A DNA stretch of 64,000 nucleotides, taken from NCBI GenBank assembly GCA_964520655.1, contig CAZFNI010000002.1, positions 128,770-192,769 of the forward strand, in the 5' to 3' direction. The notes under the pieces were generated by a model, which saw only the letters and a program-made list of their open reading frames with translations, did not search any database and was not told the DNA's origin. This document shows, in pieces, positions 15,770 through 61,272 of this stretch; the first letter of the stretch is position 1, and each line of letters starts with the position of its first letter. The DNA comes from an uncultured Planctomycetales bacterium (GTDB lineage Bacteria; Omnitrophota; Gorgyraeia; Zapsychrales; Fredricksoniimonadaceae). The translations under genes were made by a program, and so were the position numbers.

Positions 15770-15783
15770 ATAAACCTCCATTC

Positions 15784-16638
15784 TCATTGACTCTCTAGAT
15801 ACCCCTTCAATTTCCACTGTTCCAAAATATAGACTTTAAATCCCTCCACTGGTTTACTTCCACATATTCGAGCCAATTCCTCTCCTGTTTTTGTAAGCAA
15901 CACATTTCCAATATTCATTTCATTCTCTTTATCTTTAGACATTTTACACTCAACAATTTGTCCATAATATGCCACCTTAAAACTCTTAGGTAGCTTGGTT
16001 CTTAAAAAACCTGCTATTGCATTAAATTGAATCAATCCAATACTGTCCAAATGCGTCAAAGTATTAAAATTAATCCCATTCTTAATATAAATTTCATTAT
16101 GTTCATCATAAACAAGAGGAACTATATTCCCTATATGCCATCCAAAACCACAAAGTTTTGTAAATAAAATTGCATCACCCTTATCTAGGTCAGATAGAAA
16201 ATTAACAGTTCGTTTAGAGAAACTACCTGGCGAATTAGCTTCTCCTGCAAGGATACGAGACCATAACGATTGCATTTCTATATCAGATATAATTCTGCAT
16301 TTATCAAAAAAATTAGTTAGCCAATCTACTTCAATTTTATCCGGGCTAGAATCTTCCTTTAGCTGTGGCAAGGATTGTTCTACAATTTGTTCCATGATTA
16401 ATTGTTTTTTTGCCTCTTCTTCAATAAATCGCCTTACAGCTCTCTGTTGAAGCTCTGCAACTTGAATTATTCCTTGAGTTTTTATTAAATTTGCTTCAAC
16501 TTCTGCTTTAGCTATTCTTTTAATCTGGTACGGCCTAAACAATCCTCCAACTGCTTCAGAAACCTTCTCAATCAAAGTATTTGCAGGCTTAGAATAGTCG
16601 CCCAAATTTATAAGTGCTTTTGAAGTTTCGTCGCTCAT
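15784..16638 (-). CDS. Uncharacterised 284-aa soluble protein, resembles DUF2806-type defence-island proteins
   Basis: Complete ORF in an AT-rich block; segments LIEKVSEAVGGLFRPYQIKRIAKAEVEA and SLWSRILAGEANSPGSFSKRTVNFL resemble what I recall of DUF2806. No catalytic motif recognised. Confidence 0.45.
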   Translation of the reverse strand: MSDETSKALINLGDYSKPANTLIEKVSEAVGGLFRPYQIKRIAKAEVEANLIKTQGIIQVAELQQRAVRRFIEEEAKKQLIMEQIVEQSLPQLKEDSSPDKIEVDWLTNFFDKCRIISDIEMQSLWSRILAGEANSPGSFSKRTVNFLSDLDKGDAILFTKLCGFGWHIGNIVPLVYDEHNEIYIKNGINFNTLTHLDSIGLIQFNAIAGFLRTKLPKSFKVAYYGQIVECKMSKDKENEMNIGNVLLTKTGEELARICGSKPVEGFKVYILEQWKLKGYLESQ

Positions 16639-40901: not shown

Positions 40902-41361
40902 TACGCAGCCTCGTTCTTTCCGTCAGTAGAAATGACACCGTCCTGTTATAACTTGTTTTATCTGCCCGTATTTGCACCTGCAGCAAGGAACCATTAAGCG
41001 TGAACTTTAAATAGCCAATATTACTGGCGATCTTCTTCATTGTTCCCGCCGGATACTCTCTGATCAAGTTCGTCCCGCTTAAATAATACTGGATATTCGT
41101 CGCTGTTGGGATCGTGACCGCCAGTTTGTCATTGGTTGTCCCGCCGTAGTTGGCCGTGATCACCTGTGATGAGGCCTGACGAAGCTCCCGGCACATCCGA
41201 TCCGCCGCCGCCCTGGACTGCTGCTGCATATCAAGCAAAGTCATGTTCTTTGTGAAGATCGAGTTGCCAACTTGAAAAACGCCGTAGACCCCTAAACATA
41301 TCATCGTCAATAGGCTTAAACTGACCATTAACTCCACTAATGTATAAGCGTTTTTTTTCAT
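40894..41361 (-). CDS. PilW-like minor pilin (prepilin N-terminal methylation domain)
   Basis: KNAYTLVELMVSLSLL prepilin-type leader and hydrophobic helix. Confidence 0.6.
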   Translation of the reverse strand: MKKNAYTLVELMVSLSLLTMICLGVYGVFQVGNSIFTKNMTLLDMQQQSRAAADRMCRELRQASSQVITANYGGTTNDKLAVTIPTATNIQYYLSGTNLIREYPAGTMKKIASNIGYLKFTLNGSLLQVQIRADKTSYNRTVSFLLTERTRLRNE

Positions 41362-41771
41362 CCCGATATCATTGTCTGCAGCGACTTTGACTGACTCCTT
41401 CCTGAAGAATCATTCCAGCTGACTGTCACCGTGACCGTGACCGGATTATTACCACTGGATGAACTGCTGATACTTTCATTCTTTAAAGCACTAAGACCAT
41501 TGGATGTCACGGACGCTGTATTCCAAGTCCAGGTGCCTGCCCCGATATCGGAAGACAGATTAGAAAACGCCACATTTTTTATGCCCTCCATGACAAATTC
41601 CGCGTGCGATACGGCAACAGTCAAATTACGGCATTCTTCCTCAAGACGGCCATTATTCAAAAACAAGACCAGCATCACAGACAATGCATAGCCTAAAATT
41701 GCCGCTGTCAACAACAGCTCTGCCAAAGAAAATCCGCACTTGCTTTTCCTTAATTTCCTGTAAAAAATCAT
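41358..41771 (-). CDS. PilV-like minor pilin (prepilin N-terminal methylation domain)
   Basis: KCGFSLAELLLTAAILGY leader with G|FSLAE cleavage motif. Confidence 0.6.
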   Translation of the reverse strand: MIFYRKLRKSKCGFSLAELLLTAAILGYALSVMLVLFLNNGRLEEECRNLTVAVSHAEFVMEGIKNVAFSNLSSDIGAGTWTWNTASVTSNGLSALKNESISSSSSGNNPVTVTVTVSWNDSSGRSQSKSLQTMISG

Positions 41772-44179: not shown

Positions 44180-44590
44180 TTATTCATTGAGATGGCAGGC
44201 GGTGATCGGCGGCAGATCTTTGGGCGGCAAGATCACTTCATAAATATCGATATGGTCTTCCGTGACCTCGATCGATGATATCAAACAACGCTCTCTATCA
44301 ACGCTTGGATGGTCGATCCCTAAATATTGAGCGATCCCGGACTTTAATGCGTCCAACTCCAGATATAGAATAAATGACTGCTCACCTTCCGCCGCGTTCA
44401 ACGCGGATCGAACCATGGAAAAATCCAGATCAAGGACCCACTCAAGCGTTTTTCCTTTACAGAATCCCTTCAATCCTGTATCAGCCTCGATAGTGCTGGA
44501 ACAAGAGATCTTGGAAAAATCAAAACTTAATAATGTTTCATCAGGATTTAAACGGATATTTAGCCCGGATGAGCTGTCTTGACATGGCAT
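44180..44590 (-). CDS. Hypothetical protein, last gene of the giant-protein operon
   Basis: 136 aa, no recognised motif; 12 bp after the upstream gene. Confidence 0.4.
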   Translation of the reverse strand: MPCQDSSSGLNIRLNPDETLLSFDFSKISCSSTIEADTGLKGFCKGKTLEWVLDLDFSMVRSALNAAEGEQSFILYLELDALKSGIAQYLGIDHPSVDRERCLISSIEVTEDHIDIYEVILPPKDLPPITACHLNE

Positions 44591-44601
44591 ATGAGGAAAA
44601 C

Positions 44602-45549
44602 CTACTTATGCATCCGTTCTCTGAGCGCTTGCTTCATATCTTCTGCCCGTTCTTTAGCTGCCTGGGCCCTTTCTTTCGCATCATTCATCTTATCTTTAAC
44701 TACCCTTAATTTATCTGTATTGTCCTCGATCTTATCGTGCACCTCATCCATCCGATCCCGCATCTGTTCCATCAATTGTGAAACGCGCTCCTTAGAAGAT
44801 TTCATCTGATCCAGGTTCTGCTGACGCATCTCCGCCAGATCCTGCTGCCGTTCTTTGATCCTTGATAACACTTCCTTTTCATTATCCAAGATTTCCTGGA
44901 TCTTGATCTCCAATATGCCTGTCTTATCAGTCTTCATCGCCGCGATAGCCGCAGACTGTTCCAGTAGAACATTATGAATATTCTCGACAGAATCCCGAGC
45001 CCTGTTGTTATATTCACGGGATTTTTCTATGATGGCCTTCTGCATTTCAACAAGCTGGGATACTTGGATCTTCAGCGAAGTTAAACGATTTGCCAGATCT
45101 TCTTTGGGCCGCAGCAGATCAGCAATATCAATGTCTTTGACTTGCCTGTCAATGCCTGCGATGCCTTCCCGTAATTGGTCATTGAACTTAATGATCGCGG
45201 TCTCGTTACCAGCTAACTCTAAAGCCCTGCCGTTGAATTCATTGATCGCTTCTTTGAGTTTAAACAGGTCAAAATCCTGATATTCTTCCCTGTTGGCCTG
45301 CTCATATAATTTGGCCACACTGGTACTTTGTTTGATCAGGTCATCTCTTTGCTCGGTCATGCTCCCGCCTAGAATATCCTGTTGTTCTTTAAACTTTTTA
45401 ATACTATCTTTGATCTCGTTGATCGCGACCGAAGCCGTCAGAGATTGTCCCTTGGAATTCTTAACTATAGGCCGGAAAAAGATCATGTAAGTGACCATGA
45501 TCGCGCCTATGATGGCGATCACAGGGGCTAAATACAGTAAACGTATCAT
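44602..45549 (-). CDS. Membrane-anchored coiled-coil protein
   Basis: N-terminal TM helix then ~280 aa of heptad-rich charged sequence. Confidence 0.5.
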
Positions 45550-47507
45550 GTCAACTGTCCTTGTAAGCCTTTAAGATCAGAGATCGGCAGTCCGCACACA
45601 CCCTTCCTGCAAACGCTGACCTTAAAAGGTTGGTCCGTTGGTTTGATCTTAAGCACTAAGTTTGGTACATAGCATTTATACACCATTTTCCTGATCTGCA
45701 CAAGTTGTTGTGCGCTAACACCACCCGTTACTTGAACATCTACCGGGCCATCGCGCTGCATACTCATCGCTAAAAGAAAATACGTATACCCGTGAGGCGC
45801 TTTAACCAGGACAGGATAGAATCGCGTTTCTAATAAGCTTAATTTATCTCTGTATTCCTTTTTACCCGTTATAAAGAGCAATTTAGCAAAAACCATGGCT
45901 GCCATGGAATTTCCCGACGGCATGGCACCATCATAGATCTCGATCGGCCTGACGATCAACCCGGAATCTTCCTGTGTCATATAATATCCGCCGCGGCCGT
46001 CACTAAAACGGCGACAGCATTCCTCTACAAGATCCTCTGCTGTCTTAAGATACTTCTCCTGAGACGTTGCTTCATATAACATGATCAACCCATAAGAGAA
46101 ATAAACGTAATCATCCAGCATTCCGTTAATTCCTGATGCGTGAAGCAAAACGCCGTCCTTTAAATAATTCTGCAGAATATATTCCGCGCAATGTTGTGCC
46201 TGTTGAATGTATGCATCTTCTCCTAATGCTAGACCTCCCACACACAACGCCGCGATCATCAACCCGTTCCAGTCAGTCAGGATCTTGTCATCCAGATGCA
46301 GAGGCATGCGTTCTCGTCGGTATTCCAACAGCTTGCGGCGGGCAATATCCATCCGTTCCCCATCTGCAACAACGATATCTTTCGCAGAATACAGGATATT
46401 CACCGAAATAAACTCGCCATGCGGGTCATGGGCAACATTCCCATCAGGACTTACGCCATGATACATTTTAAACAGTTTGGCTTCGCTTTCGCCCAGGACC
46501 GCGGTGATCTCATGGTCAGCAAATACATAATATGCCCCCTCTTGCCCCTTACTGTCAGCATCATAGGCGCAATAAAATCCACCCTCAGGGTCTTTCATTT
46601 CAGCCAATACATAATCCATTGTGCGCCTGGCGATCTCTATCAATGCGCGATCTTGCGTCTTCTGGTAGCACTGGACATACGCAATGACAAGCAATGCCTG
46701 GTCATATAACATCTTCTCAAAATGCGGCACTTGCCATTCCTGGTCCGTTGCATAACGGTGAAAACCAGATGCCAGGTGGTCATGGATGCCCCGCTTCGCC
46801 ATCGTTGTCAATGTATGTTCAACCATGGGGAGTGTCGGACTTTCCTTGGAATCCATTGATAGCAGGAATGATAATGTGTGCCCCATGGGAAATTTAGGAG
46901 CATTGGAGAATCCGCCATGAACCGTATCATACTGTGCAGCTAACTTTTGAACGGCATCATCTAAGATAGAATAGTCGGTAGGTCCAGCATCAGTTTCTGC
47001 CGTCATCGACTGGCGCAGTATTGAAATAAGCTCATCTGAAGAAGAGAGTATACCCTCATGATCAGAGGTCCAGGCATTATGGATCGATAAAAGGACATCT
47101 TTAAATCCCGGAGAACCCCACTTGGCAGCAGGCGGGAAATATGTGCCCCCATAAAATGGTTTACCGTCAGGTTTAAGAAAAACAGACAGCGGCCACCCGC
47201 CTTGCCCTGCGATGGCCATGACCGCATTCATATAAATGTGATCGATGTCAGGACGTTCCTCACGGTCAACCTTGATGGCAACAAAATATTGATTGAGGAT
47301 ATCCGCGGTTGCCTGATCCTCAAAACTTTCATGTGCCATAACATGACACCAATGGCAGGTTGAATATCCGATAGAAAGGAAAATGGGCTTATGTTCTTTG
47401 GCGGCTTTCTGGAATGCCGCGTTCCCCCATGGGAACCAATGGACTGGATTTGTGGCGTGCTGTCTTAAATACGGACTGCGTTCAGCGGCTAAATGGTTAG
47501 TCACCAT
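45546..47507 (-). CDS. DUF255 thioredoxin-domain protein (YyaL/SPATA20-like; thioredoxin plus six-hairpin glycosidase-like domain)
   Basis: [39 protein letters not shown] signature. Confidence 0.8.
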
Positions 47508-50500
47508 TATGGAGAGTCAAACACTTCCAGGGTCTTTTTTATAGCTTCATCCCGGTCTACAGGGGGCAATTCATTTGTTTTATCAGATCTTTTATCAACG
47601 GTTACCGGGGACTGGGAAACAGGAGCCTGGATCTCCATTGAACTTACGGGAACAGTGACGGGAACCGGCTTCTCCATATTCGTCTTGGCCTGTTCCATGA
47701 ATTTTCGGGTTTGTTTAAAATCAGGCAAAATATCTTCCAGGTCTTTCAATTTATTATACGCGGCCTCATAATTCTCTTTCTTATACAACCCCATCGCTTC
47801 TTCATAGATCGCAGAGGCGCTTTCATTAAGCCGCTGCTCGATGGCTTTACGTTCATCTTCCAATTGCTTCTGATGTTCTTTGGCCTTTTTCGCTAGTTCT
47901 TCTTTTTTCTTATTCTCGATGATCTCTTGTTCTTTTTGTTTTTTCAATTCGATCTTACGCTGCTGCTCTTCCATCTTGGCTTTGGCAAGTTGATTCTTTC
48001 GATCCGCTTCCTGCTGCTTTCTTGCTTCTGCTTCCTGCTTTAGCTGATCCTTACGTTTCTCGATAAGTTCTCTCGCATGCTGATCTTCAAAATGCTTCTT
48101 TCTTTTATTAGAAAACTCTACCTGTTCCTGACGAGCTTTGTCATTATTCTGGACAGATTCTGCTTCATCCATCGAGATCGGTTTTACTGGTTTTGACTCT
48201 TCTACCTTGACCGGCTGTTCTTGCGCAGCAGGGGTAAGAGGTACACGCCGGAACATAAGTTCTTCATCTTCTTTTTCACGTTTGCGTTGTTCCCTTGCGC
48301 GTTCTTCATCTAATCGACGGTTCTCGCGTTCCTTAAGCCTTAAAGCTTCCATACGAATTTTTTCGCGCTGGCCGGATTCTTCGGCATACCTGCGCTGCCG
48401 CTCAAATTGAGCGTTCAATTCGACCTGACGGGCACGCTCCTTTTGTGCCAATGCGTTCGCCATCTTTTGTTTTCGGATCTGCTCGGCAATAAACAGGCTC
48501 CGTTCACGTTCATGGGCAGCACTGGCCCTGGCTGTCACTTTTTCATAATATCGTTCGATCTTGATCGAATACGCCTTCGCGGCTTTATACCCGTGATTAC
48601 TCAGATCATCAAAGATGACCTTTGCCGCCGTATATTTCTTAGCCTTATATAAAGCGATCGCGTGATCAAAGACTTCATCTTTGGAACGTTCTATTTCCAC
48701 CTGCTCATAATCCTGCCTTTCGCGCTTGGCTTTTTCGGCAGCAAGACGTTCAGCACGCTTTAACTTTTCTTGCTGTGCTTCCTCAAGAAGCATGGCCTTT
48801 GCCTGAGCCTGACGCTCCTTGCGATCCTTAAGCAAAACCTCCCGTGGTGTCAGTTTTTTGTTTATCGTCTTACTGACAACAGGCGCCTTTGGCTCGATCG
48901 GTTTTTGCTCAACATCAGTTTTTTCTTTAAGTTTTTGTTCAGGTCTTTCTTTTGGTTTAGCTTTTTCCTGGGATTCTTTGTTATCTTCCTGAACGATCGT
49001 ACGTTTAAGCGCTTCTAGTGTTTCCAATAAACTCTCTAATTCGGAGAACTTTGCCTTGGCCAGATTAAAATCTTTAGCCTTGGAAGCCGCCAAGATCTCA
49101 TCGTTAAGATTGACGGCCTTATCTGCCAATGTTTGAATCTCCGATTCCTGGGCCTGTCGCAGTTGTCTCCTGCGTTCTTCTTCCGCTCGGCGTCTTTCCT
49201 CTTCAGCCGCTTTCACCAGGATAGCCTCATGCTGGCGTTTTGCTTCCAGCGCCTGCAAACGGTCCTCTTCTTTGATCGTTCTTTCCAGGACGGCCTGACG
49301 CTCGGCCTGTTTGGCATCTTCTTTAATATGCGCCAAATACCAGCGGGTCATTTTGTAATTTGGAGAATCTGTTTCGATCTGGAGGAAAGAAGTGTAGGCT
49401 TCTTCAAATTTCTGATTGCGTAAATGAATGATCGCTTCATCGTATTGATATTTGATCTGGGCCATACGCTGTTCGTGAGCGATCTTTTCCTGACGTTTGC
49501 GCTCACGTTCTTCATCTTCACGCAGCTGGCGCAGGATAGATTCTTTTTGCTGTTTAATGCGGTTAAGCATCTCATCGACCTTGGCCATTTTCTTTTTGAC
49601 CGGGGCCATGCGTTTATCTTCTGCCAACATGCTGATCTTCTGCAAGACCTGGGCAGAACGCTGGGCCAACGATTCAATGATCTTAGCCTCGTCGATCTCC
49701 TGCTCTTTTGTCAATACGGTTTTGGATGGTTCTTGGACAATTGGAGGGATTTCACTCTTTTTTTCTTCATTCTTTTTTACTTCAGGCTTTTGTTCCGGCT
49801 GTTTGGCCTGTTCAACCCTGACCGCCTCTTTTTTAACGCGCTGCGCTTCCCGATTTAGGATCTCTTCTTCTTTGGCCTTGCGCCTGGCTTCAGCTTCCTT
49901 GGCCAGCATATCCTGTTTTTGTTTACGGGCCTCCTCCTGTGCTTGCCGCTTCTTTTCCATCTCAGCTATCTGGGCCTGCTTTTGAATATCCTTTTCTTTA
50001 ATAAGAGCGATCTTGGCAATATACGCTTTTGTGGAGCGATAGCCCGGTAATGTTTTATCCACATCATTGAATTTTTCCAAAGACTCATCGTAAGTCTTTT
50101 TATCAAACAAGTTGACCGCGGCTTGGTATACAAAAGCGACCTGTTCCTCCAGCTGCTTGATACGCTGCTTTTCTTTCTCCTGGGCTTCCTTCTGTTCAAG
50201 GGCTTCTTTTTTACGTTTGGCTACTTCTTCTTCCCATTGCTGAAGGGCAAGTTCCTTGGCCTTGATCTGATCAACACGGGCTTGTTCTGCCGCCATATCT
50301 TTGTCTGCACGCGCGATGTAATTACGGGAAGCTTTATAATCCGGAACAACCCATTCCACCTCTTCAAACTTCTTTTTCGCTTCCATATACTTCTTGTTCT
50401 TGTATAAACTCACGGCTTCATTATAAACAGTGTCCGCCTGGGCATTGATCTGGTTCTTCCTGTCTTTTTCTTTCTGCTCGATCTCCTTATGCCAGGCTTC

Positions 50501-51283
50501 CTTTTCACGCTGACGGGCACGCTGGGCTTCCTCCTGCTGGCGGGCTTCTTCCTTTTGGTCCGCCTTGGAAAGAGCAACTTCCGTCTGAATGATGTTCTGG
50601 TCAATGATCCTCAAATAACTATTTGTTCCCTTATAGTTATCCGACAATTCCTGAACATGAGAGAACATCTCTTTGGCTTCTTTATATTTTTTCTCTTTAT
50701 AATAGGCAACAGCCTGTTCGTAGGCGCCTGCAGCATCGGAAAGCTTAACCTGCTTTTCCTGAATCTGCAGACGAACCTGCTGCTTCTCCTGTCTCTTGAT
50801 CGCGATTTCCTGGGCTTTTAATTTTTCCGCGCTTTGGTTGATGTATTTCGTCATTTCAGGATGTTCAGTGATATTGATGGCCTTTTCAAAATATTCGCGG
50901 GCCTGATCAAACTTCCCTTCATCCTGCAGCTCCATCCCTTTTTCGTAATATTCCCTGGCCCGCTCCTCACGTTTTTGATTGCGTTTGACAACCGACTGCT
51001 CTTTGATCTTATCGTTGACGCGTTTTATATTTTCGCGGGATTTGATGATGAGTTTTTTCAGATCGTAGACGTAACTGGAAGCCGCCTCAGATGTATCCTG
51101 GTCAGAGGCAGCAGCCTCCATGTCGCCGTCTTTGGCTGGCTTGGAGTGGTCTTCATTGACAACAGCAGCAGCGGAATCAACCGAAGGCTCATTATCAAGC
51201 CCAGTAGCGGGCTGACCGGCGAACGCCGGAGAAGCTATTAATAATAGGAAATAAAGAATAACATATGACATAATTTTTATCAT
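47507..51283 (-). CDS. 1258-aa secreted, highly charged coiled-coil protein with seven dispersed TPR-like helical-hairpin modules
   Basis: Start is an ATG whose complement lies at 51281-51283, overlapping the giant gene's TGA (ATGA). Signal peptide [22 protein letters not shown]. Seven repeats of Y.EA..L...KKY.EAK..F..V....P.YK......Y separated by KE/RE-rich linkers. Confidence 0.7.
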
Positions 51284-54200
51284 TCTAACACACCCTTTTG
51301 AGCATCGGCTACTATTTTCTCCCATAATTTTCTCGCCTTGACATATTCGCCCGTCACATAATAATCCTGCGCGGTCTTGTTGTATTCCTGCAATTTCTCC
51401 TCAAATGCGATCTTGCCTCGGATAAATTCGGAGGCCTCATCGAACATCATCTGGCCAGCGATGATGATATCTTTGTAGATCTGCTGGGACTCTTCAAACT
51501 TACTGGCTTTCTGAGCTGCTGAAGCAAGCACGAACATATGGTTTAAGTCGACAACCACCTTGCTGTCAGGTTTTTGCAATTCCCTCGATACCATGGCCCA
51601 TGCCCATTCAGCGACCTTATTATCCAGCCACTTTTCTTTAGCCCGCTGTTTCTCTTCCGGAGAACGATCGTAAAGTTTGCCGCTCATCCGCAAGAACGGC
51701 CCCTGAGAAGTATAATTCAGATTGGTCAGATCGTCGTTAAACTGGGTAAAGTTCCAACCCAACCCCAATTGCGCGTAATCGTTGATGTTACGGGTCGCCT
51801 CCATCAATAAGCCCTGCTTGCTGTCTTTCGCTTCGACCTGGGTCAGATTACGTAATTCGGTACTCAATGTCCAATCCCGATCAACCTTGTAATTGATGCG
51901 GTGGATCATGAGCCATGTGTGCGTGCGGTTGAATTCAAATCCAGTGACTTTCTCGTCGTTGATCCTGAACGCGAACTTTTCCGCCAACTGCCAGGCATCA
52001 TTGACATCATACACCCCCTCAACGCCGAACACCTGGGTACGGCTCTGGGCGACATCAGTCACTGCACCAGCAGATTGTCCGACAGGGCCGGCATTTTCTT
52101 TATAGGCATATTGACCGATCATATTCAAACGATCGAAATTAACAGGCCTGTAGGATGCTCCCAAGATAACCTGCTTATGCCGCTCTTCGATCGCGCTGGT
52201 GGTGACATTCTCCGTCTTGGAATATTCGAGCTTTGCCGAAACGGACATGTTGTCCGTGATTTTACCCTCTAACGCATTATAAAAAACATACTGTCGTTTA
52301 TTTTCATTGCCTTCATCGAAACGGAATTCCACTTTCGCTGAATCTTTCAAACGTTCCATGGCAAGCTCAGGATCTTTCCATACATACCCCGCTCCAAGGG
52401 CGATGGCCGTCCTGTCTGTCTTTGACCCGTCAAGGTTCTGTACTTTACCTTTTTCCAAACTACCCAAAAGAGCAAGCTTGTCATTGACATCTCCGGTCAA
52501 ACCAAAAATATTGGATTGTGATACAGCCCCGCTTTGGTCGCCGACAGCGCGCGTCAAGGATGCCTCAACCTTCCTGCCGTCCTGCTCTTTGGCCAAGGCG
52601 TATTTACTGTTAGACGTTGTTCCTGTCGGTGTGATACCAAATGAACGTTCGCTGACAGCCTGAAGGCGGTCATTGATCTTCGCCTGCTGAGAGACGGCGA
52701 TCGTTGTTGTTTTTCCACCCTGGGCATTGTCATCAACCTTGACGCTGGATGCCGTGGTCAGGTTATCATTAACCCGTTTGTTGGCCTCTACAGAAATAGA
52801 ATTGCTTGCGGTCGTTGACGTATTGGTCAGTCCTTGAAGTCCGATCGTACTGGTGGTGCCCTGGTTCATGCTGACCGCTGTTTTGATCGTTGTGTCTTTA
52901 TCGATCACGCCTGTAGTCGCCGCTACCGTCGCTGTCGTCACCGTCTGACCATTAGCCGCCGCGGATTTTCCAACCAGCGCATCAACAACTGTCTGCTCAT
53001 TGATCCGGGCACTTGTTCCGACCGTTCCGGAAGTTGTTTTTGTACCCGTTGAAGAGTCCGTCGAGGAAACGGATGCCGTGGCAGAGACCTTATCATTGAT
53101 ATCCTGCTTGGCGCCAAAGGTCGTCGTCTTGGCACTCTCTCCTGTAGCCAGCTGCGTCAGCGTATAGGCCGTTGATAACGCCAGCTTATCCGTGACATTC
53201 TGGGAAACGCCAAACGTTGTCGCTGTACCCGCTTTGCTAAACGCCTCCTGAGCAGAGATCTTCAAACGGTCCGTCACTCGTCCTTGAGCGCCGATCGTCG
53301 TGATATTATTATTCGCATTGCTGATATCAAACTGCTGGCCGGCGGTTAATGTGACCCTGCCGTTAAGCGCATATTCCGCCTTCCCTGCCAGCGACTTTGT
53401 GACCTGATTTGTCGTGGTGACCAGATCCCCGATCTTATTCTTGACCTCCTGGATCTGATATGCCCCGGTCAATTTCAGACGTTCGGACTCATGCACGACC
53501 TGGACAAGAGTGGTGCTTGTTTCGCTGGCACCGACCTGGGCCACGGTTTGTAAATTGGCATTATTGATGAGTTTCTGTATATCCGTGCGGGCTGTGACGC
53601 GTGTCAACGGAGTTAGATCAAAGGTCAACGCTAAACCGGCTAATTGTTTACCTTGCTGCGACGACGATTGCACTGAGGTGAACGAATCTTCGATCCACTT
53701 GTAATACGATGCAACACCCAATCGGTTAAAGAGTCTGGCATCTCCTTTGATGCCATACGCAACACCATTGGCCGCATCACCAGACTGCAGCTGCGTGAAT
53801 GAAATACCCCCATCAGTGGACACATAGGAACTGACACCTAAGGATTGCGTTTGGGCATACTCAGCTTTCACGGTCGCATCCGGTCCTAAATGCGCGGTCA
53901 CGTCCGTACCCTTCATTTCAAAATTCTTATTGGTCTGCGTTTCTTTTACATATGTCCCGCCAATGACCACATTGTCGCCCACGGCTTGCGCGACACGCGC
54001 ACCTTCAGAAGATTCCGTTAACTTGTCCTGCACATAATATTCATAATCCGCGACCACGTAGATCGGATTGCCGTCGATCAGATCGGTTGAAACGATCGAT
54101 TCTGATTTCGCGATCATGGAAACCGGCTGCCAGAACAGGATACGCCCCTGTCCCTCGTCTAATTCATAGTCCGCCCCGTTCTTCATCTCTTTGGAAGACA

Positions 54201-57200
54201 ATACCAGACCGGTCACTTTGTCGCGTACTTCAATGCGGATCTTATCCGTTGACTGTACGACGTCCTTGTTCTTTAAGAAATATAAACTGCCGCCCGTCCC
54301 CAAAAATTCATTGTGGGATGGTCGTTGCTGGATCTCAGCATGGAACAAAACAACTTTCGTGCGGGCATCGCCGTAGGGGTTATTAGCCACGCTTTGGTAA
54401 TCTAATTTACCTCCGTAGAATGAGCGGGTGAAATTGGCAAATTCCGTATTGTTAAAATCGACCGCGTAATTGCCCCACACCGCCTGTGATTTATCCCACT
54501 GCACCATCAAATACAACGGCCCCTGAGTATCGGTCGCGTCATAATTGATCGAAGACTTATCGCCGTAGATCGGATAATAAGTGGCCGGGTCGAGTTTCCT
54601 ATAAAGCTCCTTTTGCTGGCGATCCGTATCAAAAGAAGATGTCACCAAATATTTGCCCATGATCTTGCCTTTGAGATAATAGGATGCTTTGCCTTGATGC
54701 CAGAATTTATTCTGGAAATGATCGCTGGACTGGATGGGTTCGACATTGCCGCGGTTGAAATTATAACCAACTTTGGCATCGCCCAAGCCAACGAACATGA
54801 AATAGTCATCCCCGACCTTGATCGGTCGCGTATAGCGCTCAAGGCCGACCGTTGGCGGTAATGATAACGGCACAGGCGTCAAAGACGGCGTTATTGCGGG
54901 CGGAGAGATCTGATCCAGAGGATTTGGCGGCACAATTTCTCCTTTGTCCTGAGGACCAATGACCTCCAGATTATAATCGCCGTTGGGCAGAATGATCTCG
55001 ATATTATCCGTTTTGTCCGCCGCCGTGATGCCAGCATCCAGCATTTCTTTGGGGGTCAGTCCATAATATTGTTCCAGGGGAATATCCGCAAAAACAGCAC
55101 CGCCCTTTAAGACCCGCACCGATTTGATATCCTGCCCCTGACGGTTAATGTGGATCGTCTCACCAGCGATCGTGATACCTTGCTTCTCAAGCGCATTGAC
55201 CGCTGATTGCGTATCCACCCATTTGCGGTAATTATCCGCCTGCTGTTTGCCCCAATCAGATCTTGTTTCCTTGTCTTTTTCTTTCTTGTATTCCTCTTCG
55301 GTCTCGATAACGCGTATTTCCAAGGGTTTCTCCATGGTCAGGTCACGCTCTCCCTTTTCATTCTTCACGCTGAGGACATACGCATAATGATGATCAAAAC
55401 GGATCATGCGCTCATCGTCGCCGCGGCCATTCCAGATGATCGGGTCATGGATGTTAAAACGCGTCCCGGTAAAGTGTTTGACTAATTTTTTGGTATCACG
55501 GTCGATGATGTCGAGCTGCCAGGAATCAAGGAAGGCCGCGTAATTGGTGAATATTCGAAATTGGGCCGGTTTAAAAAGGCTGGTATTATTGTAAATGACT
55601 AACGTCTCCTTGCCCTCCTCAGGACTGAACATCGCAACATTAAGTCTTGGAGCAGGCTTATTCTTATCCTGATTGAGCGCGATCTTTTCATTAAAGAAGA
55701 CTGCGTCCTTGCCCACGACCTGCTTATTGTCCATATTCACGCCAAAATTGACCTTGGAGATGGAGCCGTTGGTCACATCTACAACAACGGCCTTGTCCGT
55801 CGTTAAATAGGACCCGGGCGGCAACGTGCGTTCATCTATGCGCAGCATATGTCTTCCAGGCAAAACGCCCGGCCAGCTGTATTTCCCTTCCCTGTCCGCG
55901 GTGATGACCGTCCCGTCGTCCGTCACGATCTGGACATTGGGGATAGGCCTCTCGACAATGGTCGTCCCTTCCGTCGGATCATATTCCGGTGCATCTTGTT
56001 GGCCGTTCTCATTTAGATCATAAAACACTTTGCCGATCACTGTCCCCATGTCAAACAGCGGATCCATAACGACCTTGACCGATTTGGTCGTCGTATTAGA
56101 AATGACCAGGCCGTTGGAATATTTGGCCTGCGCCACGTTCTCATACGTCCCGCTGGCCACACCGGCACCGACAACCAACTGATATTTCAGTGTTTTAGTG
56201 ATGCCCGGACCGATCGATCCAATGGTAAAGGTCAGCGGTCGATTGCCTGAGGGGTCCGCGATCCCGATACCGTCTAACAATACGCGGTTGCTCAAATATT
56301 TAAATCCGGGTGGGATCTTATCCACGAGCACGATATTATTGATCGTTTCCGAGCTGGAAAGGTTCTGGATCGTCACCGCGTACGTCACGACATCCCCGAT
56401 GCGCACCTCTGTTTTATTAGCAGACTTCTCAATGCGTAACAGGAATCGATTAATATCCACCGGATGGTCGATCTGCAGGATCACGTTATTGACCGTAAAA
56501 GTCTCTCCCTTGGAACCCGTCGTTACCACTTTCCCAACAGGGAAGGTCGTCAGAACGGACGGATAAGTGAAATCGGGATTGGAAAGCTGGATATAATAGT
56601 TCCCGTTAGCCGCCAGGAAACTATATAAACCGTCCGTCCCCGTGACAAATGGATTTGTATCATTGCAATCCAGGTCCCTTAAGACCGTGATATTTCCGCT
56701 GCCGTCGCAGGAGCTAACCTCAGCCAAATGATTATCCGAGGCACGGTAAATAGCGACTGAGGCATCTTTGACCACATTGCCTGTCGTGGAATCAAAAACA
56801 TATCCGAAAGGATCGGTCAATGATAAACTGATCAAGTCGCTGGAGACCCCATCAACAACAACAGAGACATAATTTGTTCCTTTAAGCAAACTCGTGGTCA
56901 CCGCAAAAGAATAATTTCCTGTCCCGTCAGTAGTAGAGGATCCGATAGACGACAAGAGCAAGCTGCCTGCACTATCATTAGCTTTGACCACAACAGCCTG
57001 CCCCGGTTTGCCAACCCCTGTAATGACCGGTTTATCGCCCTTGATGCGTTCATTATTGACCGGCGATGTGATCTGTGGCACTTGCGACGTGGTCGGCGCA
57101 AGGACGACCGTCAGGTCATTTTGAGGACCAGGGACTTCAACGAAGGAACTGCTTAGAACATAAGGTGTCAAATAATTATCATCGGCAACGGTGCTGATCC

Positions 57201-60200
57201 TCAATTTTACTCCCGACGCAACGCTTGTGCCGGCATCGGTGTCGTCATCGTGCCCTAACACCACACGGTAATTTCCATAAGCATTCGCCCTGGTCGTGGC
57301 AACGATCACCTCAGTTCCCGCTTCATTAAGCCCTTTAATGCGGACATTGGTGTTCGGCGGCCCTGTCCCGATAATGACAGGCAGCTGCCCGACTGTACGA
57401 TTGTCCGCCGGGGCCGATAGCTGTAAAGACACAAACAGCCAGTTCGTATTGTTATTCAAAGAATCCGTACATTCCAGACAGGTCACAATACTGGTCAAAG
57501 CATTGGAGTCTTTAACATCCACCAAACTCGCCGTTTGGTCGCCATTAGGAAAGGTAATATTCCAGGATGATCCTGAAGAGCTGGAGCGCAGCTGTATTAA
57601 AGAACCGACCGCGCCGGTAAAATTAAAAATATTATTAACGGTCTGATTCGATCCAGCCGTAAAGGTGATCACTTTTGCCGGGGTTGTGGAATACCAATCA
57701 TAGAATGTCGTATTCCCGGTGATCAGCGCGGCTGATGCGGTATCCATGGTGACACGACCGCTGGAAGTCGTGAACGTCCCTCCGCTATGCGTCCAGTCGC
57801 CGGCGACTGTGAAGCTCTTCGCGGTCGTCGGAGCGGTTAACACGCCTGAGGAGATCACAACCGCCCCATTGGCATCGATATTCCCGTTGGTTGCCGTCAG
57901 CGTGCCGCCATTTATCGTCAATGTACCGCCCGTGGTCAATGTATTGGCATTAGTAGAAATATCCAAGGAACTGCTCGTCACACTTAAGTCATGGGCCAGC
58001 GTCAACGCACCGTTGGTAATGAACAGGTCTTTAGTGCCGTGCGTATCATTGATCACTACATTGTAATAATCCGTGGCTCCAAGATCAGGGATCGTAAAAG
58101 TATCCACAACTCCATCGCCGTTGCCAGTGAACAAAAATGTACCGTGTGCCACATCCATGGTGCCGAAACTGATCGTCTCACTACCAAACAAGGACACCGT
58201 CCCGTTATTGGTCAAGGCTCCAGTTACGGTCATATTCTTGCCGTTTAAGGTTAAAGTCGAGGAAGCATTTGTGGTCAATACTGCCAAGGTCACATTGGTG
58301 GATAATGACGGAAGATTCGCAACATTGGTGACCACCGCCGCATCTGTGCTGTTTGGAACGATCCCCAAGTCCCAGTTTGTCGGAACATCCCAGTCGGTGG
58401 ATGTTGTCCCTGTCCATGTCAGTGTGGCACCGCCGAAAGTCCAATTGGTGTTGTTGCCGGAATCAACTGAGCTGCTGCGTGCCACCAGCGTTACGCCGCC
58501 GGACGCGTTATTATCCTTAACATCCATGAAATTGATCGACTGCGTCCCTCCCGCCGTCAACGAAATATTAGCCTGACTTCCCGAAGATGTACTGCGCAAG
58601 GACAACAGCTGGCCGGATGCGCCGGATAAAGTCAAATCATTGCTGACCGTCTGCGTCGTCCCTGCTGTTAAGGTGAGCGTATCGGCAGCCGCCATCACTT
58701 TGCGTAAACGATAGAAGGTGGTCGAGCCCGCCATGGTTTGACCAGTCCCGTCAAAAGTCACCTTGCCGCTGGCATTATTAAAAGTCCCTCCCGAATGCGT
58801 CCAATTCCCGGCAACGGTAAAGGCTGTATTGGTTGTGGCCGCGGGCGCGTTGAACGTTCCGCTTGAGATCACAACCGCCCCGTTGGCATCAATGATCGAA
58901 TTCGTGGCCGTCAAAGTCCCGCCATTTACCGTGAGCGTACCTCCTGTTGTCAGCGTGTTGCTGTTCGTTGACGTATTCAAAGACGAGCTGGTCACACTCA
59001 GATTATTAGCCAATGTCAGATCGGCATTAGTAATAAACACATCCTTGGTCCCGTGTGTGTCATTGATCGTCAGATTATAGTAATCCGTCGCACCGAAATC
59101 CTTGATCGTGACCGTATCAACAGTCCCATCACCATTACCAACATAAACAAAGGTTCCGTGCGCTGTGTCCATTGTCCCAAAAGACATGGTTTCTGACCCG
59201 AACAGCGTGATCGTGCCGTTATTAGTCAATGCCCCGCTCACACTCAAATTCTTGCCGTTTAATGTCAGATTGGATGAAGCATTGGTCGTCAGCGTCCCGA
59301 TCGTGACGTTTGTCGCCAACACCGGTTGATTGGCAACATTGGCGATCACCACATTATCGATCGATGTTGGAACGATCCCGATATCCCAGTTACCAGAGGT
59401 ATCCCAATCCGTTGAGACTGTCCCTGTCCAGGTCATGGTCGCTGCGCCGAAGATCCAGTTGGTGTTATTCCCCGTATCGACCCCTCCGGCGACAGCCACG
59501 AGCGTCAGACCGGAAGCCGTATTGTCCTGAACATCCACATAACTGATAGCCTGGGTTCCCCCCGCCTGTAAATTCAGATTCGCCGCTGATCCGCCGACAG
59601 AACTGCGGATGCTCAGCACATTGCCTGCAACCCCATTTAACACCAAATTATTGCTGATCGTCTGTGTTGTGCCCGCGGTCAATGTCAAGGTGCTGGCTGC
59701 TGCCACCACTTTGCGCAGCTGGTAAAACGTCGTCGAACCCGCCATGGATTGAGAGGATCCATCAAGCGTCACTTTACCGTTATTTGCCGTGAAAGTCCCT
59801 CCTGAATGGGTCCAATTGCCGGCCACCGTAAACGCGGTATTGGTCGTTGAAGCAGGCGCTGTCAGCGTCCCGCTTGAGATCGTAACCGCTCCATTGACAT
59901 CGATCGTTGAATTTGTGGCAGTCCACGTACCGCCATTGACCGTCAAAGCCCCACCCACCACAACGGCATTGCTGTTGGTCGACGTATTCAAGACCGCCGC
60001 CGTGACGCTTAAATTGTTGACTAGCGTTAATGCGCCATTAGTGATAAATGTATCGGGTGAGCCATTGGTGTCATTGATCGTCAGATTATAATAATCCGTC
60101 GCGCCGAAATCCTTGATCGTAATGGTCGTGCCGGTATTGGTCCCCACATACGTGAATGTCCCGGGATTGACAATGTCCTGTGTGAGATTCAAGGTCTCCG

Positions 60201-61272
60201 TACCCTTTAACTTCACATTACCGCTGTTGGTAAAGGTGTTCGTCACGGTGATGTTCTTGCCGTTTAGATCAACAACCGACCCCGCTTGCAGCGTTAAATT
60301 CGCGATGGTGACATTGGTCGCCAAAATTGGAGCATACACAACTGATCCGCCCACTGGCTGAATGGTTACAGAATCGCCGGGAGCAGGCACAACCCCGCCG
60401 CTCCAGTTAAAGGGATCGTCCCAATCGGTTGACACAGTTCCGTCCCAGGTAAATGTGCCGTTGCCAAACGACCAATTGGTATTGTTGCCAGCGTCGGTTG
60501 ATGTTAACCCTGCAACCAAGGTCATGCCGGTGGCATTATTGTTATGCACGCTTAGATATTTCATGTCCTGAGCGCCGCCGGTCTGCAACTTTAATTTCGC
60601 CTGCGGATTAGCGCCTGATTTTTCCAAACTCAACAATTGCCCAATGGCTCCCTTTAATGTCAATAAATGCGTCACCGTCTGTTCTTCCGTGCCATTGGCG
60701 GAGAATGTGAGCGTATCGGCGGCGGCCGTGACCTTGGTCAAATTATAGAATGTTGTCGTCCCAGTGATGGTCTGGTTGGTCCCGTCAAAGGTGACTGTAT
60801 TGGTGCCGGGTGTATATGTTGCCGAATTCAACCAGTCTTTGCCGATGGTCATATTCAATCCATTGGCCTGGAATGTCCCAGCCGTGTTAGAAAAATTATT
60901 ATTGATATCCGCAACAGCAGGGGTCAATGACAGCGTACTTGCTCCATCATGAGTCAAGTTATAAAACGCATTAGCAAGCCCGCCTGTGTTTAAGATCTGT
61001 GTGCCAGAGGTGCCGTTAAAGGTGACTGTCCCTGTGCCTGAAGTGAAGACACCCGAACTAATCCAGTTTCCAGACACCGTGATCGACCCGGTTGTTGTGA
61101 TCAGCGTACCGCTGTTATTAACATCACCTGGAACGATCAGGGCACAGGCTGCCACATCGAGGGTACAATTAGCGGGGATCGTAATACCGGCGGCGAAGAG
61201 CTGCGAAGAGAAGATACACGCAAAAAAAAGAACGTATATATATACTCTGAAATTTTTTAGAAAAATTGACAT
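51280..61272 (-). CDS. 3330-aa secreted giant surface protein with ~335-aa tandem repeats, DUF11-like domain and beta-rich C-terminal region
   Basis: Single uninterrupted ORF with a signal peptide. Residues ~100-1300 are four repeats marked by TFY(N/Q/R)L(T/R)KV...TDWD...DFGATDYYNLTINDT. A DUF11-like segment follows (DKIPPGFKYLSNRVLLDG...TFTIGSIGPGITKTLKYQLVV). About 1000 aa of alternating-polarity beta-strand-like sequence precede a TPR-like tail. Confidence 0.8.
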   Translation of the reverse strand: MSIFLKNFRVYIYVLFFACIFSSQLFAAGITIPANCTLDVAACALIVPGDVNNSGTLITTTGSITVSGNWISSGVFTSGTGTVTFNGTSGTQILNTGGLANAFYNLTHDGASTLSLTPAVADINNNFSNTAGTFQANGLNMTIGKDWLNSATYTPGTNTVTFDGTNQTITGTTTFYNLTKVTAAADTLTFSANGTEEQTVTHLLTLKGAIGQLLSLEKSGANPQAKLKLQTGGAQDMKYLSVHNNNATGMTLVAGLTSTDAGNNTNWSFGNGTFTWDGTVSTDWDDPFNWSGGVVPAPGDSVTIQPVGGSVVYAPILATNVTIANLTLQAGSVVDLNGKNITVTNTFTNSGNVKLKGTETLNLTQDIVNPGTFTYVGTNTGTTITIKDFGATDYYNLTINDTNGSPDTFITNGALTLVNNLSVTAAVLNTSTNSNAVVVGGALTVNGGTWTATNSTIDVNGAVTISSGTLTAPASTTNTAFTVAGNWTHSGGTFTANNGKVTLDGSSQSMAGSTTFYQLRKVVAAASTLTLTAGTTQTISNNLVLNGVAGNVLSIRSSVGGSAANLNLQAGGTQAISYVDVQDNTASGLTLVAVAGGVDTGNNTNWIFGAATMTWTGTVSTDWDTSGNWDIGIVPTSIDNVVIANVANQPVLATNVTIGTLTTNASSNLTLNGKNLSVSGALTNNGTITLFGSETMSFGTMDTAHGTFVYVGNGDGTVDTVTIKDFGATDYYNLTINDTHGTKDVFITNADLTLANNLSVTSSSLNTSTNSNTLTTGGTLTVNGGTLTATNSIIDANGAVVISSGTFNAPAATTNTAFTVAGNWTHSGGTFNNASGKVTFDGTGQTMAGSTTFYRLRKVMAAADTLTLTAGTTQTVSNDLTLSGASGQLLSLRSTSSGSQANISLTAGGTQSINFMDVKDNNASGGVTLVARSSSVDSGNNTNWTFGGATLTWTGTTSTDWDVPTNWDLGIVPNSTDAAVVTNVANLPSLSTNVTLAVLTTNASSTLTLNGKNMTVTGALTNNGTVSLFGSETISFGTMDVAHGTFLFTGNGDGVVDTFTIPDLGATDYYNVVINDTHGTKDLFITNGALTLAHDLSVTSSSLDISTNANTLTTGGTLTINGGTLTATNGNIDANGAVVISSGVLTAPTTAKSFTVAGDWTHSGGTFTTSSGRVTMDTASAALITGNTTFYDWYSTTPAKVITFTAGSNQTVNNIFNFTGAVGSLIQLRSSSSGSSWNITFPNGDQTASLVDVKDSNALTSIVTCLECTDSLNNNTNWLFVSLQLSAPADNRTVGQLPVIIGTGPPNTNVRIKGLNEAGTEVIVATTRANAYGNYRVVLGHDDDTDAGTSVASGVKLRISTVADDNYLTPYVLSSSFVEVPGPQNDLTVVLAPTTSQVPQITSPVNNERIKGDKPVITGVGKPGQAVVVKANDSAGSLLLSSIGSSTTDGTGNYSFAVTTSLLKGTNYVSVVVDGVSSDLISLSLTDPFGYVFDSTTGNVVKDASVAIYRASDNHLAEVSSCDGSGNITVLRDLDCNDTNPFVTGTDGLYSFLAANGNYYIQLSNPDFTYPSVLTTFPVGKVVTTGSKGETFTVNNVILQIDHPVDINRFLLRIEKSANKTEVRIGDVVTYAVTIQNLSSSETINNIVLVDKIPPGFKYLSNRVLLDGIGIADPSGNRPLTFTIGSIGPGITKTLKYQLVVGAGVASGTYENVAQAKYSNGLVISNTTTKSVKVVMDPLFDMGTVIGKVFYDLNENGQQDAPEYDPTEGTTIVERPIPNVQIVTDDGTVITADREGKYSWPGVLPGRHMLRIDERTLPPGSYLTTDKAVVVDVTNGSISKVNFGVNMDNKQVVGKDAVFFNEKIALNQDKNKPAPRLNVAMFSPEEGKETLVIYNNTSLFKPAQFRIFTNYAAFLDSWQLDIIDRDTKKLVKHFTGTRFNIHDPIIWNGRGDDERMIRFDHHYAYVLSVKNEKGERDLTMEKPLEIRVIETEEEYKKEKDKETRSDWGKQQADNYRKWVDTQSAVNALEKQGITIAGETIHINRQGQDIKSVRVLKGGAVFADIPLEQYYGLTPKEMLDAGITAADKTDNIEIILPNGDYNLEVIGPQDKGEIVPPNPLDQISPPAITPSLTPVPLSLPPTVGLERYTRPIKVGDDYFMFVGLGDAKVGYNFNRGNVEPIQSSDHFQNKFWHQGKASYYLKGKIMGKYLVTSSFDTDRQQKELYRKLDPATYYPIYGDKSSINYDATDTQGPLYLMVQWDKSQAVWGNYAVDFNNTEFANFTRSFYGGKLDYQSVANNPYGDARTKVVLFHAEIQQRPSHNEFLGTGGSLYFLKNKDVVQSTDKIRIEVRDKVTGLVLSSKEMKNGADYELDEGQGRILFWQPVSMIAKSESIVSTDLIDGNPIYVVADYEYYVQDKLTESSEGARVAQAVGDNVVIGGTYVKETQTNKNFEMKGTDVTAHLGPDATVKAEYAQTQSLGVSSYVSTDGGISFTQLQSGDAANGVAYGIKGDARLFNRLGVASYYKWIEDSFTSVQSSSQQGKQLAGLALTFDLTPLTRVTARTDIQKLINNANLQTVAQVGASETSTTLVQVVHESERLKLTGAYQIQEVKNKIGDLVTTTNQVTKSLAGKAEYALNGRVTLTAGQQFDISNANNNITTIGAQGRVTDRLKISAQEAFSKAGTATTFGVSQNVTDKLALSTAYTLTQLATGESAKTTTFGAKQDINDKVSATASVSSTDSSTGTKTTSGTVGTSARINEQTVVDALVGKSAAANGQTVTTATVAATTGVIDKDTTIKTAVSMNQGTTSTIGLQGLTNTSTTASNSISVEANKRVNDNLTTASSVKVDDNAQGGKTTTIAVSQQAKINDRLQAVSERSFGITPTGTTSNSKYALAKEQDGRKVEASLTRAVGDQSGAVSQSNIFGLTGDVNDKLALLGSLEKGKVQNLDGSKTDRTAIALGAGYVWKDPELAMERLKDSAKVEFRFDEGNENKRQYVFYNALEGKITDNMSVSAKLEYSKTENVTTSAIEERHKQVILGASYRPVNFDRLNMIGQYAYKENAGPVGQSAGAVTDVAQSRTQVFGVEGVYDVNDAWQLAEKFAFRINDEKVTGFEFNRTHTWLMIHRINYKVDRDWTLSTELRNLTQVEAKDSKQGLLMEATRNINDYAQLGLGWNFTQFNDDLTNLNYTSQGPFLRMSGKLYDRSPEEKQRAKEKWLDNKVAEWAWAMVSRELQKPDSKVVVDLNHMFVLASAAQKASKFEESQQIYKDIIIAGQMMFDEASEFIRGKIAFEEKLQEYNKTAQDYYVTGEYVKARKLWEKIVADAQKGVLE
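57370..60970. repeat. About four tandem copies of a ~1.0-kb divergent DNA repeat inside the giant gene
   Basis: Spurious plus-strand ORFs at 57719, 58763 and 59789 have near-identical translations spaced 1008-1044 bp apart, mirroring the ~335-aa protein repeats. Confidence 0.7.

Follow-up and report, generated by a model that had tools for sequence, protein, structure and literature searches.

In type Va autotransporters, such as Ag43, Hap and Hbp, a Sec signal is followed by a solenoid-type passenger and a C-terminal outer-membrane barrel, and in E. coli the AsmA-like protein TamB assists autotransporter assembly. Fibrillar adhesins of the cell surface contain CLIPPER, a CnaA-like stalk domain whose name was coined for 'Extracellular Region' proteins; many DUF11 domains lack the Lys-Asn isopeptide and catalytic Asp residues (PMC12617251). 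The Omnitrophota are uncultured, often ultra-small bacteria, for which attachment to other cells or predation on them has been proposed. Giant proteins published from this phylum are multi-enzyme or alpha-helical transmembrane proteins of 5,000-85,000 amino acids (aa) (PMC10066038; 10.1101/2023.11.21.568195; 10.64898/2026.06.07.730766). Here, we describe a minus-strand locus (positions 44180-61272) in a 64-kb stretch of Omnitrophota DNA from contig CAZFNI010000002.1, which we refer to as the window. The locus is headed by a 3330-aa protein (the giant) and continues with an exported helical protein (p2), a DUF255 protein, and two small proteins (p4 and p5). It probably represents a self-anchored surface adhesin with an uncharacterized, predicted giant barrel and a clade-specific module of tail and partner, the giant being most likely an outer-membrane-anchored fibrillar surface protein. 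The locus defines a conserved two-protein module, consisting of the tail of the barrel and a hairpin-repeat scaffold. Related loci with which the window was compared are labelled with L-numbers, for example L002 and L097.

The open reading frame (ORF) of the giant spans 51280-61272 on the minus strand, as do all parts of the locus given below. Its translation starts with a Sec-type signal peptide (aa 1-27, MSIFLKNFRVYIYVLFFACIFSSQLFA, followed by AG; 61192-61272), and the sequence pattern suggests a positive n-region, then a hydrophobic core, and cleavage at an A-x-A-like site. The following region (aa 28-1282; 57427-61191) is rich in T, S, G and N, together 49.6% of its residues, and is predicted to form a beta-solenoid. 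Self-comparison and a hidden Markov model (HMM) of the repeat unit resolve three full units of ~337 aa (aa 174-514, 515-851 and 852-1188), which are 45-75% identical, and one partial unit at either end. The original prediction had counted four repeats of ~335 aa; the repeats are real, and their number is corrected here to three full and two partial units. A model of two units (aa 174-851) obtained with AlphaFold2 (AF2) contains short beta strands only and reached a predicted local distance difference test (pLDDT) score of 85.5. Foldseek searches of the PDB with this model returned nothing significant; the weak matches were mostly right-handed beta-helices, including all of the first 18, and comprised PL6 lyases, Ag43, Hbp, Hap, EtpA, EspP and tailspikes. 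The repeat region (57427-61191) also contains 52 N-x-S/T sequons as compared to 36±5 in shuffled sequences, the repeat copies not being independent of each other, and genes for STT3- and PMT_2-type glycosyltransferases are found close to some related loci (L005 and L003).

The solenoid is followed by an immunoglobulin-like stalk (aa 1283-1890; 55603-57426) with Big_6-like, CarboxypepD_reg-like, DUF11/CLIPPER and SdrD_B-like domains. All of these were identified by segment-wise Pfam scanning; searches of Pfam and NCBIfam with the whole giant produced noise only (PAAR and bMG10). The DUF11-like domain that had been proposed is borne out by a match to DUF11/CLIPPER (PF01345) at about aa 1612-1718; scanned on its own, this segment reached 48.6 bits (cutoff, 24.6; E=1.2e-12). 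Big_6 (E=8e-07) also passed its curated Pfam cutoff, and the matches to SdrD_B (1e-04) and CarboxypepD_reg (1e-03) were both below theirs. This combination of domains is typical of cell-surface fibrillar adhesins. When the giant was used to search the sequences of the PDB, only its CLIPPER domain was matched. The stalk leads into a beta-sandwich-type domain plus linker (aa 1891-2152; 54817-55602), recognizable by the alignment consensus 'FRIFTNY..FI..W'. This domain is common to all members of the family, including short barrel proteins of ~1200 aa, and had no Pfam match in the segment scan.

The next ~1050 residues (aa 2153-3201; 51670-54816), ending with GPFLRMSGKLY, are predicted by AF2 and Foldseek to form an outer-membrane beta-barrel. 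The AF2 model of aa 2140-3330, which was built from an alignment of 81 sequences, has a pLDDT of 75.6 and a predicted template-modelling score (pTM) of 0.67, and displays ~45-58 beta strands with short turns, followed by four helices. Foldseek comparison of the model to the PDB retrieved almost exclusively large outer-membrane barrels, all at low template-modelling (TM) scores of 0.1-0.3, with FimD as the top match and SprA, LptD, TonB-dependent receptors, SlpA and MtrB among the others. These matches indicate the fold class of the C-terminal region but point to no specific solved relative. Weak Pfam matches to OMP_b-brl (E=0.027) and DUF2490 fall into segments of the barrel, and the conserved stretch of ~1050 aa has no model of its own in Pfam or NCBIfam. 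A terminal aromatic residue is the classical C-terminal signal of outer-membrane proteins assembled by BAM. Homologs of the giant that have no tail stop exactly at the last strand, and their terminal residue is aromatic (...LVGKY, ...LIGKF or ...IATW); in the window, the signal-like strand (GPFLRMSGKLY) lies inside the chain of the giant and a tail comes after it. Taken together, the stalk domains, the AF2 model and the Foldseek results support the earlier proposal of a surface fibre protein and, of the two C-terminal folds suggested there (outer-membrane barrel or beta-helix), favour the barrel.

The barrel belongs to a widespread family (hundreds of species in at least five phyla) that is named by no domain database. 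Searches with the last 1406 aa of the giant yielded 617 homologs of 1200-2400+ aa, most of them annotated as Candidatus Omnitrophota and 40-64% identical, and more distant barrel relatives of ~1200 aa are found in Gammaproteobacteria, Myxococcota, Desulfobacterota, Campylobacterota and Planctomycetota. When a single genome of each species was scanned for a sequence pattern of the family, at least 569 loci were counted. In Gammaproteobacteria and Campylobacterota, the gene of a 1600-3400-aa repeat protein is located 5' of the ~1200-aa barrel gene, with stop and start codons often overlapping, and in Cocleimonas this upstream protein bears Big_9, CshA, SdrD_B and CLIPPER domains. Given that fibre and barrel are encoded by such a split pair in L048, L052, L055, L059, L061, L080, L082, L083 and L085, and are fused in L066, L071 and L077, they constitute one functional pair. 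The split versions occur in cultivable Gammaproteobacteria (Leucothrix and Cocleimonas), which opens the family to experiment. Omnitrophota also have a tail-less barrel paralog of ~1550 aa and ~31% identity (L087/L088 and L039-L058). In L087/L088, this paralog has a gene of a 530-aa protein of unknown function on its 5' side, lies in a dapA/dapB neighbourhood and is followed downstream by uvrA; at many other loci of the tail-less paralog, an ORF of ~930-990 aa is present 300-550 nucleotides (nt) downstream. In addition, a gene for a Y1-type (REP-associated) tyrosine transposase is positioned directly 5' of the giant homolog in L002 (812-1441) and L005 (5592-6269) and likewise in L013, L014, L015, L022 and L027; it is not present in the window.

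In the window, the barrel is extended by a helical tail of 129 aa (aa 3202-3330; 51283-51669), which carries two TPR-like hairpins and is modelled by AF2 as four helices with a pLDDT of about 90. The tail is kept in 22 relatives. Outer-membrane barrels have their C-terminus on the periplasmic side, and this standard topology would place the tail in the periplasm. Its match to TPR_2 is sub-threshold in the segment scan (E=0.068), and two segments of the tail align to a profile of the p2 module (hhalign P=3e-5 and 8.5e-5). The similarity between tail and p2 module that had been noted previously is thus seen in these two profile-profile matches, at a generic TPR level.

The longest ORF of p2 (47507-51325; 1272 aa) starts inside the giant gene. 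Reading of the junction showed that the stop codon of the giant and the start codon of p2 share the sequence ATGA; therefore, p2 starts at M15 of the long ORF and is a protein of 1258 aa (47507-51283), in agreement with the length and coupling given in the original prediction. Its sequence displays a Sec signal peptide (…SPAFA, followed by GQ), is KE-rich (K+E 28.9%; K/E/R/Q/A 56%) and contains no cysteine. Seven TPR-like hairpin modules of ~50 aa, the number expected beforehand, were recovered at aa 109-158, 184-231, 283-330, 382-431, 610-659, 868-915 and 1155-1203. Module 1 passes the Pfam cutoff for TPR_2 (32.7 bits vs 27) and the other six are sub-threshold. Rather than forming a tandem array of 34-residue repeats, as in TPR proteins, the hairpins are isolated from each other and spaced by 25-260 charged (E/K/R/Q/A-rich) residues. 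An exhaustive search with the N-terminal region of p2 defined a family of 433 cluster representatives. Among p2 homologs, this region is strongly conserved and the number of hairpin modules varies from 6 to 19. A variable P/S-rich linker precedes a conserved C-terminal peptide (47510-47554 in the window) of the form R-x-[DE]-x-[IV]-S-x-A-L-D-x-F-[DE], which ends ~85% of the complete homologs and looks like a short docking motif for a further partner.

The two proteins are linked by their distribution. Only one clade of Omnitrophota extends the barrel by a tail of ~130-150 aa past the last strand, and p2 homologs of 1000-2200 aa are encoded directly 3' of the tailed giant in 23 genome loci. Among 67 informative genome loci, tail and p2 were both present in these 23 and both absent from 42; two loci had a tail without p2 (L004 and L025) and none had p2 without a tail (Fisher P=6e-16, not corrected for phylogeny). 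In L004, the second hairpin of the tail is degenerate, and in L025, the tail of ~330 aa itself carries extra hairpins. The reciprocal search, in which a profile of the p2 N-terminus was compared to metagenome contigs, found 34 loci, and in 28 of the 29 having upstream DNA, p2 was located immediately 3' of a tailed giant. The sole exception is L115, where a p2 homolog (5015-6572) directly follows mreD-like and PBP2-like genes of cell-wall elongation and is not preceded by a giant. An analogous arrangement was observed in the Planctomycetia metagenome-assembled genome L065: the giant ends in a multi-hairpin tail of ~300 aa and the next gene, which overlaps by 4 nt, encodes a 1454-aa helical protein with a signal peptide and hairpins. 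A neighbour-joining tree of the barrels contains a main tail-plus-p2 clade and a sister clade in which L021 and L035, both devoid of tail and p2, are nested among tail-plus-p2 loci; this topology hints that tail and p2 may have been gained or lost jointly more than once. The near-perfect co-occurrence supports the suggestion that the giant is functionally tied to the next gene.

We estimate a probability of about 50% for the following mechanism in full, that is, an anchored fibre with a periplasmic scaffold of tail and p2. The barrel would anchor the fibre in the outer membrane and possibly also export it in a type V-like manner, leaving the tail in the periplasm. Given that the C-terminus of the barrel is periplasmic and p2 is Sec-exported, binding of p2 to the tail in the periplasm is the simplest reading, and docking could occur by hairpin-hairpin packing. 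Once docked, p2 would act beneath the outer membrane as a long, multivalent scaffold or tether. With its many hairpins and the E/K/R-rich helical segments between them, it might connect several barrels or reach as far as a partner in the inner membrane. The C-terminal peptide of p2 could engage a further partner, with p4 or the AsmA-like protein encoded by the relatives as candidates; in other bacteria, AsmA-like proteins help to assemble large proteins of the outer membrane. The DUF255 protein and p5 would be loosely associated passengers of the operon and not obligate parts.

Strict adjacency and translational coupling of giant and p2 are also expected if p2 were the cargo of a two-partner-like secretion system, in which the huge barrel serves as the translocon, p2 docks on the periplasmic tail, and the exported p2 forms a charged helical layer or fibre on the surface. 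The Sec signal of p2 and its lack of cysteines would suit such a role, as would the predicted barrel, which is big enough in principle for a wide pore and far exceeds SprA, FimD and LptD. The split relatives, too, pair a barrel with a neighbouring large protein of secreted type; however, this partner is encoded upstream and is a beta-rich, adhesin-like protein rather than a helical one. Furthermore, tail-less barrels are never accompanied by p2, POTRA or TPS domains were not detected, and the multivalent repeats and C-terminal peptide of p2 would fit a scaffold better than a cargo. We consider p2 unlikely to be a secreted substrate.

The length, charge and helical nature of p2, along with the membrane-anchored coiled coil of p4, could alternatively point to a module of envelope architecture. 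Barrel and p2 (and p4) would then act as a tether or spacer of the outer membrane, by analogy with the large-barrel-plus-coiled-coil proteins SlpA and OmpM but with a coiled coil that is provided in trans, and the N-terminal domains of the giant would form a cell coat or S-layer-like array. SlpA/SDBC barrels are indeed among the Foldseek matches, the p2 paralog in L115 adjoins the cell-wall genes mentioned above, and AsmA-like envelope-biogenesis genes are part of the cluster in relatives. Nevertheless, the similarity to SlpA (TM 0.18-0.21) is no better than that to other big barrels, SLH, OmpA, LysM or other peptidoglycan-binding domains were not found in the giant, p2 and p4, and most family members have neither tail nor p2 yet keep adhesin-type N-terminal domains. 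A purely architectural function is, in our view, distinctly unlikely.

Several points weigh against the anchored fibre with its tail-p2 scaffold. In the middle of the barrel model, 240 residues corresponding to S/T/G-rich hairpin repeats, whose number varies among homologs, are of low confidence, and closure of the barrel, its number of strands and the presence of a plug would be at most model predictions. The beta-helix assignment of the repeats leans on Foldseek matches that are not significant (best E=0.04). Surface exposure of the N-terminal part of the giant is likewise deduced from the types of its domains, and in one relative from the Myxococcales, the N-terminal half contains a domain of OmpA-like (periplasmic) type. 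By profile comparison, the tail does resemble the p2 modules, but generically, at the level of TPR-like hairpins; an HMM made from the seven p2 modules of the window alone did not match the tail of the giant (E=0.07). The tail-plus-p2 distribution is largely that of one clade, so that the Fisher P value overstates the independence of the loci. Finally, an AsmA-like protein would belong to the proposed machinery, and a tblastn search of the whole window recovered no such sequence.

The original prediction had described a dedicated unit of five genes. The five minus-strand ORFs and their overlaps are confirmed by the coordinates and by reading the DNA: p2 and the DUF255 gene (45546-47507; 653 aa) overlap by 1 nt (TAATG), the DUF255 gene and p4 (44602-45549; 315 aa) share ATGA, and p4 and p5 (44180-44590; 136 aa) are spaced by 11 nt. 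A 10-kb ORF and four tight junctions cannot be attributed to chance. The end of p5 is 3 nt from that of the convergent gene ilvN (44176), and therefore the transcription unit stops there. On the other side, a 108-nt AT-rich spacer separates the giant gene from two upstream genes on the same strand: g551, encoding a 551-aa membrane protein with C-terminal TPRs, and g279, encoding a 279-aa protein. We rejected an upstream extension of the unit, as phmmer detected no homologs of g551 or g279 in any related locus. Rfam RNA families were not found in the window.

Conservation of gene order divides these genes into a core and a periphery. Nearly all relatives have an AsmA-like (AsmA/DUF748) gene, which is either flanked by p4 and p5 or located immediately 3' of p2 or of the DUF255 gene; the former arrangement is seen in L007 (15564-17444), L008 (19798-21375) and L091 (16489-17802), with proteins of 440-640 aa. 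L008, L091 and L097 are otherwise syntenic with the window down to ilvN/ilvB (in L097 also gshA/gshB), and a comparison of these loci suggests that the AsmA-like gene has been deleted or relocated in the lineage of the window. Judged by synteny, the conserved core is the giant and p2, usually joined by the AsmA-like gene, and not the set of five. Of the unit proposed originally, the giant-p2 pair and its adjacency hold; DUF255 is dispensable, p4 is conserved in position and architecture only, and p5 is restricted to near relatives and inverted in one of them. The outcome that the original prediction had named as speaking against it, unrelated gene families without conserved synteny, applies to part of the unit. 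In more distant relatives (L002, L005, L012, L015, L018 and L022), a gene for a PilZ-domain protein (c-di-GMP receptor) of ~380-480 aa lies downstream of the AsmA-like gene at the end of the cluster, which hints at a possible control of the adhesin module by c-di-GMP.

The DUF255 protein combines a DUF255/Thioredox_DsbH domain (PF03190; 4e-76, 254.8 bits vs a cutoff of 27) with an (alpha/alpha)6-type part, for which weak GH88 and GlcNAc-2-epimerase-like matches were obtained. It contains a CHWC motif and scores 18.8 vs 190 for the NCBIfam DsbH equivalog. The gene is located 3' of p2 in nine of the 23 genome loci and in most of the close metagenome relatives, and is absent from some loci, such as L097. 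Comparison of N-termini revealed no signal peptide in the protein of the window and its near relatives; in five distant loci (L002, L018, L027, L113 and L114), the N-terminus is signal-peptide- or lipobox-like, and the compartment may thus differ between lineages. Chlamydial DsbH is periplasmic, and we also considered a disulfide link between the DUF255 protein and DUF11, as in chlamydial OmcB/DsbH. This idea was rejected: the mature giant has only 6 cysteines, p2 has none, and the DUF255 protein has no signal peptide.

The N-terminal hydrophobic anchor of p4 and its coiled-coil-type sequence of ~290 aa match the membrane-anchored coiled-coil protein that had been predicted. Proteins of similar architecture (294-343 aa) are encoded at the same position in L006, L007, L008, L013, L090, L091, L094 and L097, and p4 has no significant sequence similarity to these positional counterparts (best E=0.26). 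For p5, first described as a 136-aa unknown, the ORF is real and a remote similarity to IscU/NifU_N can be added: it scores 17.5 bits against Pfam NifU_N (PF01592), under the cutoff of 22, and matches IscU in the PDB with E=0.02, the position of the third conserved cysteine not being conserved in the alignment. Homologs of p5 occur in the closest relatives only, on the opposite strand in L090, and p5 is probably not part of the envelope module. The DUF255 protein and p5 look cytoplasmic, both having no signal peptide, and are patchily conserved. These features, the inversion of p5 in L090 and the lack of sequence conservation of p4 are what one would expect if the giant were a stand-alone adhesin and the downstream genes were unrelated, merely sharing its transcript. 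The co-occurrence of tail and p2 in >50 loci, the reciprocal search and the degenerate tail where p2 is missing argue against this, and we regard it as highly improbable that there is no system at all.

Other parts of the window contain genes of separate interest. At its low-GC end, the genes of an OLD-family ATPase/TOPRIM protein (551 aa) and of a UvrD-like helicase (371 aa) overlap (both within 1093-3850, minus strand), forming a pair of Gabija-like (GajA/GajB) defence genes. A mobile and defence island of 36-42% GC (4258-16638) comprises an rve transposase, the type I restriction-modification genes hsdM/hsdS/hsdR, RadC, an AbiEii toxin, Fic/DUF4172 and DUF2806. At 35608-36594 (minus strand), a 328-aa protein displays an unusual pairing, namely an N-terminal BolA domain fused to Laminin_G_3 (concanavalin-like). 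Three coupled genes at 39657-41771 (minus strand) encode a DUF7305 protein (414 aa), a protein with a prepilin-type N-methylation motif (155 aa) and a 137-aa unknown; this minor-pseudopilin-like cluster is 2.4 kb from the operon, with ilvB/ilvN in between.

How does the giant compare to systems that have been described? Its predicted order of signal, solenoid-type passenger and C-terminal barrel is that of the type Va autotransporters, whose passengers appear among the weak Foldseek matches to the repeats, and the AsmA-like genes in the clusters of its relatives parallel TamB. However, type Va barrels have ~280 aa and 12 strands as compared to ~1050 aa and ~45-58 predicted strands, and neither the whole giant nor its segments match PF03797. 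Also unlike type Va proteins, the giant has an immunoglobulin-like stalk between passenger and barrel, and a helical tail, presumably periplasmic, after the last strand, together with a dedicated helical partner gene. The proteobacterial relatives, with their adjacent and often overlapping adhesin-like and barrel genes, resemble type Vb and chaperone-usher systems. Type Vb systems are characterized by a 16-strand transporter of the Omp85 type that bears POTRA domains, and by an exoprotein with a TPS domain. FimD is the top Foldseek match of the barrel, but at a TM-score of only 0.2-0.33 and with the barrel of the giant being much larger; Pfam and NCBIfam searches of the giant and p2 detected no POTRA, ShlB, TPS, usher or chaperone domains.

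With the CLIPPER fibrillar adhesins, the giant has in common its length, a signal peptide and an above-threshold CLIPPER domain beside a stalk of Big_6/SdrD_B type (PMC12617251). It differs in having one copy of CLIPPER instead of a tandem stalk, and a barrel of an unannotated family where the described Gram-negative CLIPPER adhesin is anchored by an OmpA-like domain (PMC12617251). The giant (>20 kb) ORFs of Omnitrophota come from the same phylum and encode very long, envelope-associated proteins with a proposed role in cell-cell contact (PMC10066038; 10.1101/2023.11.21.568195; 10.64898/2026.06.07.730766). These are different proteins, and we rejected the published 'giant ORF' classes as a match; DUF11, the barrel family and the p2 partner are not mentioned in the three giant-gene papers (PMC10066038; 10.1101/2023.11.21.568195; 10.64898/2026.06.07.730766). 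Literature searches on anchors of fibrillar adhesins likewise yielded nothing matching the giant/p2 module, and the view that this is not a recognized system agrees with our finding no annotation or publication describing it.

SlpA of Deinococcus/Thermus and OmpM resemble the module in another respect, which is that a very large barrel is combined with a periplasmic element that is long and coiled-coil or helical. SlpA carries its coiled coil and SLH domain N-terminally in the chain of the barrel, whereas in the module the helical part is encoded as a protein of its own, the link would be the C-terminal tail of the barrel, and neither SLH nor other peptidoglycan-binding domains were detected in any of the giant, p2 and p4. 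A more far-reaching idea, which we advance tentatively and consider rather doubtful, is that the barrel family represents a new class of device for anchoring or export at the outer membrane: a single chain, larger than any solved barrel (>36 strands of SprA), that displays fused or separate fibrillar adhesins and that, in Omnitrophota, is wired by its periplasmic tail to the charged helical p2 scaffold, on a 100-nm scale, to form a hitherto undescribed sub-outer-membrane skeleton or trans-envelope tether. Should the barrel have its predicted size, it would exceed the range of sizes known for outer-membrane barrels made of one chain, and bacteria would have an additional way to display adhesins.

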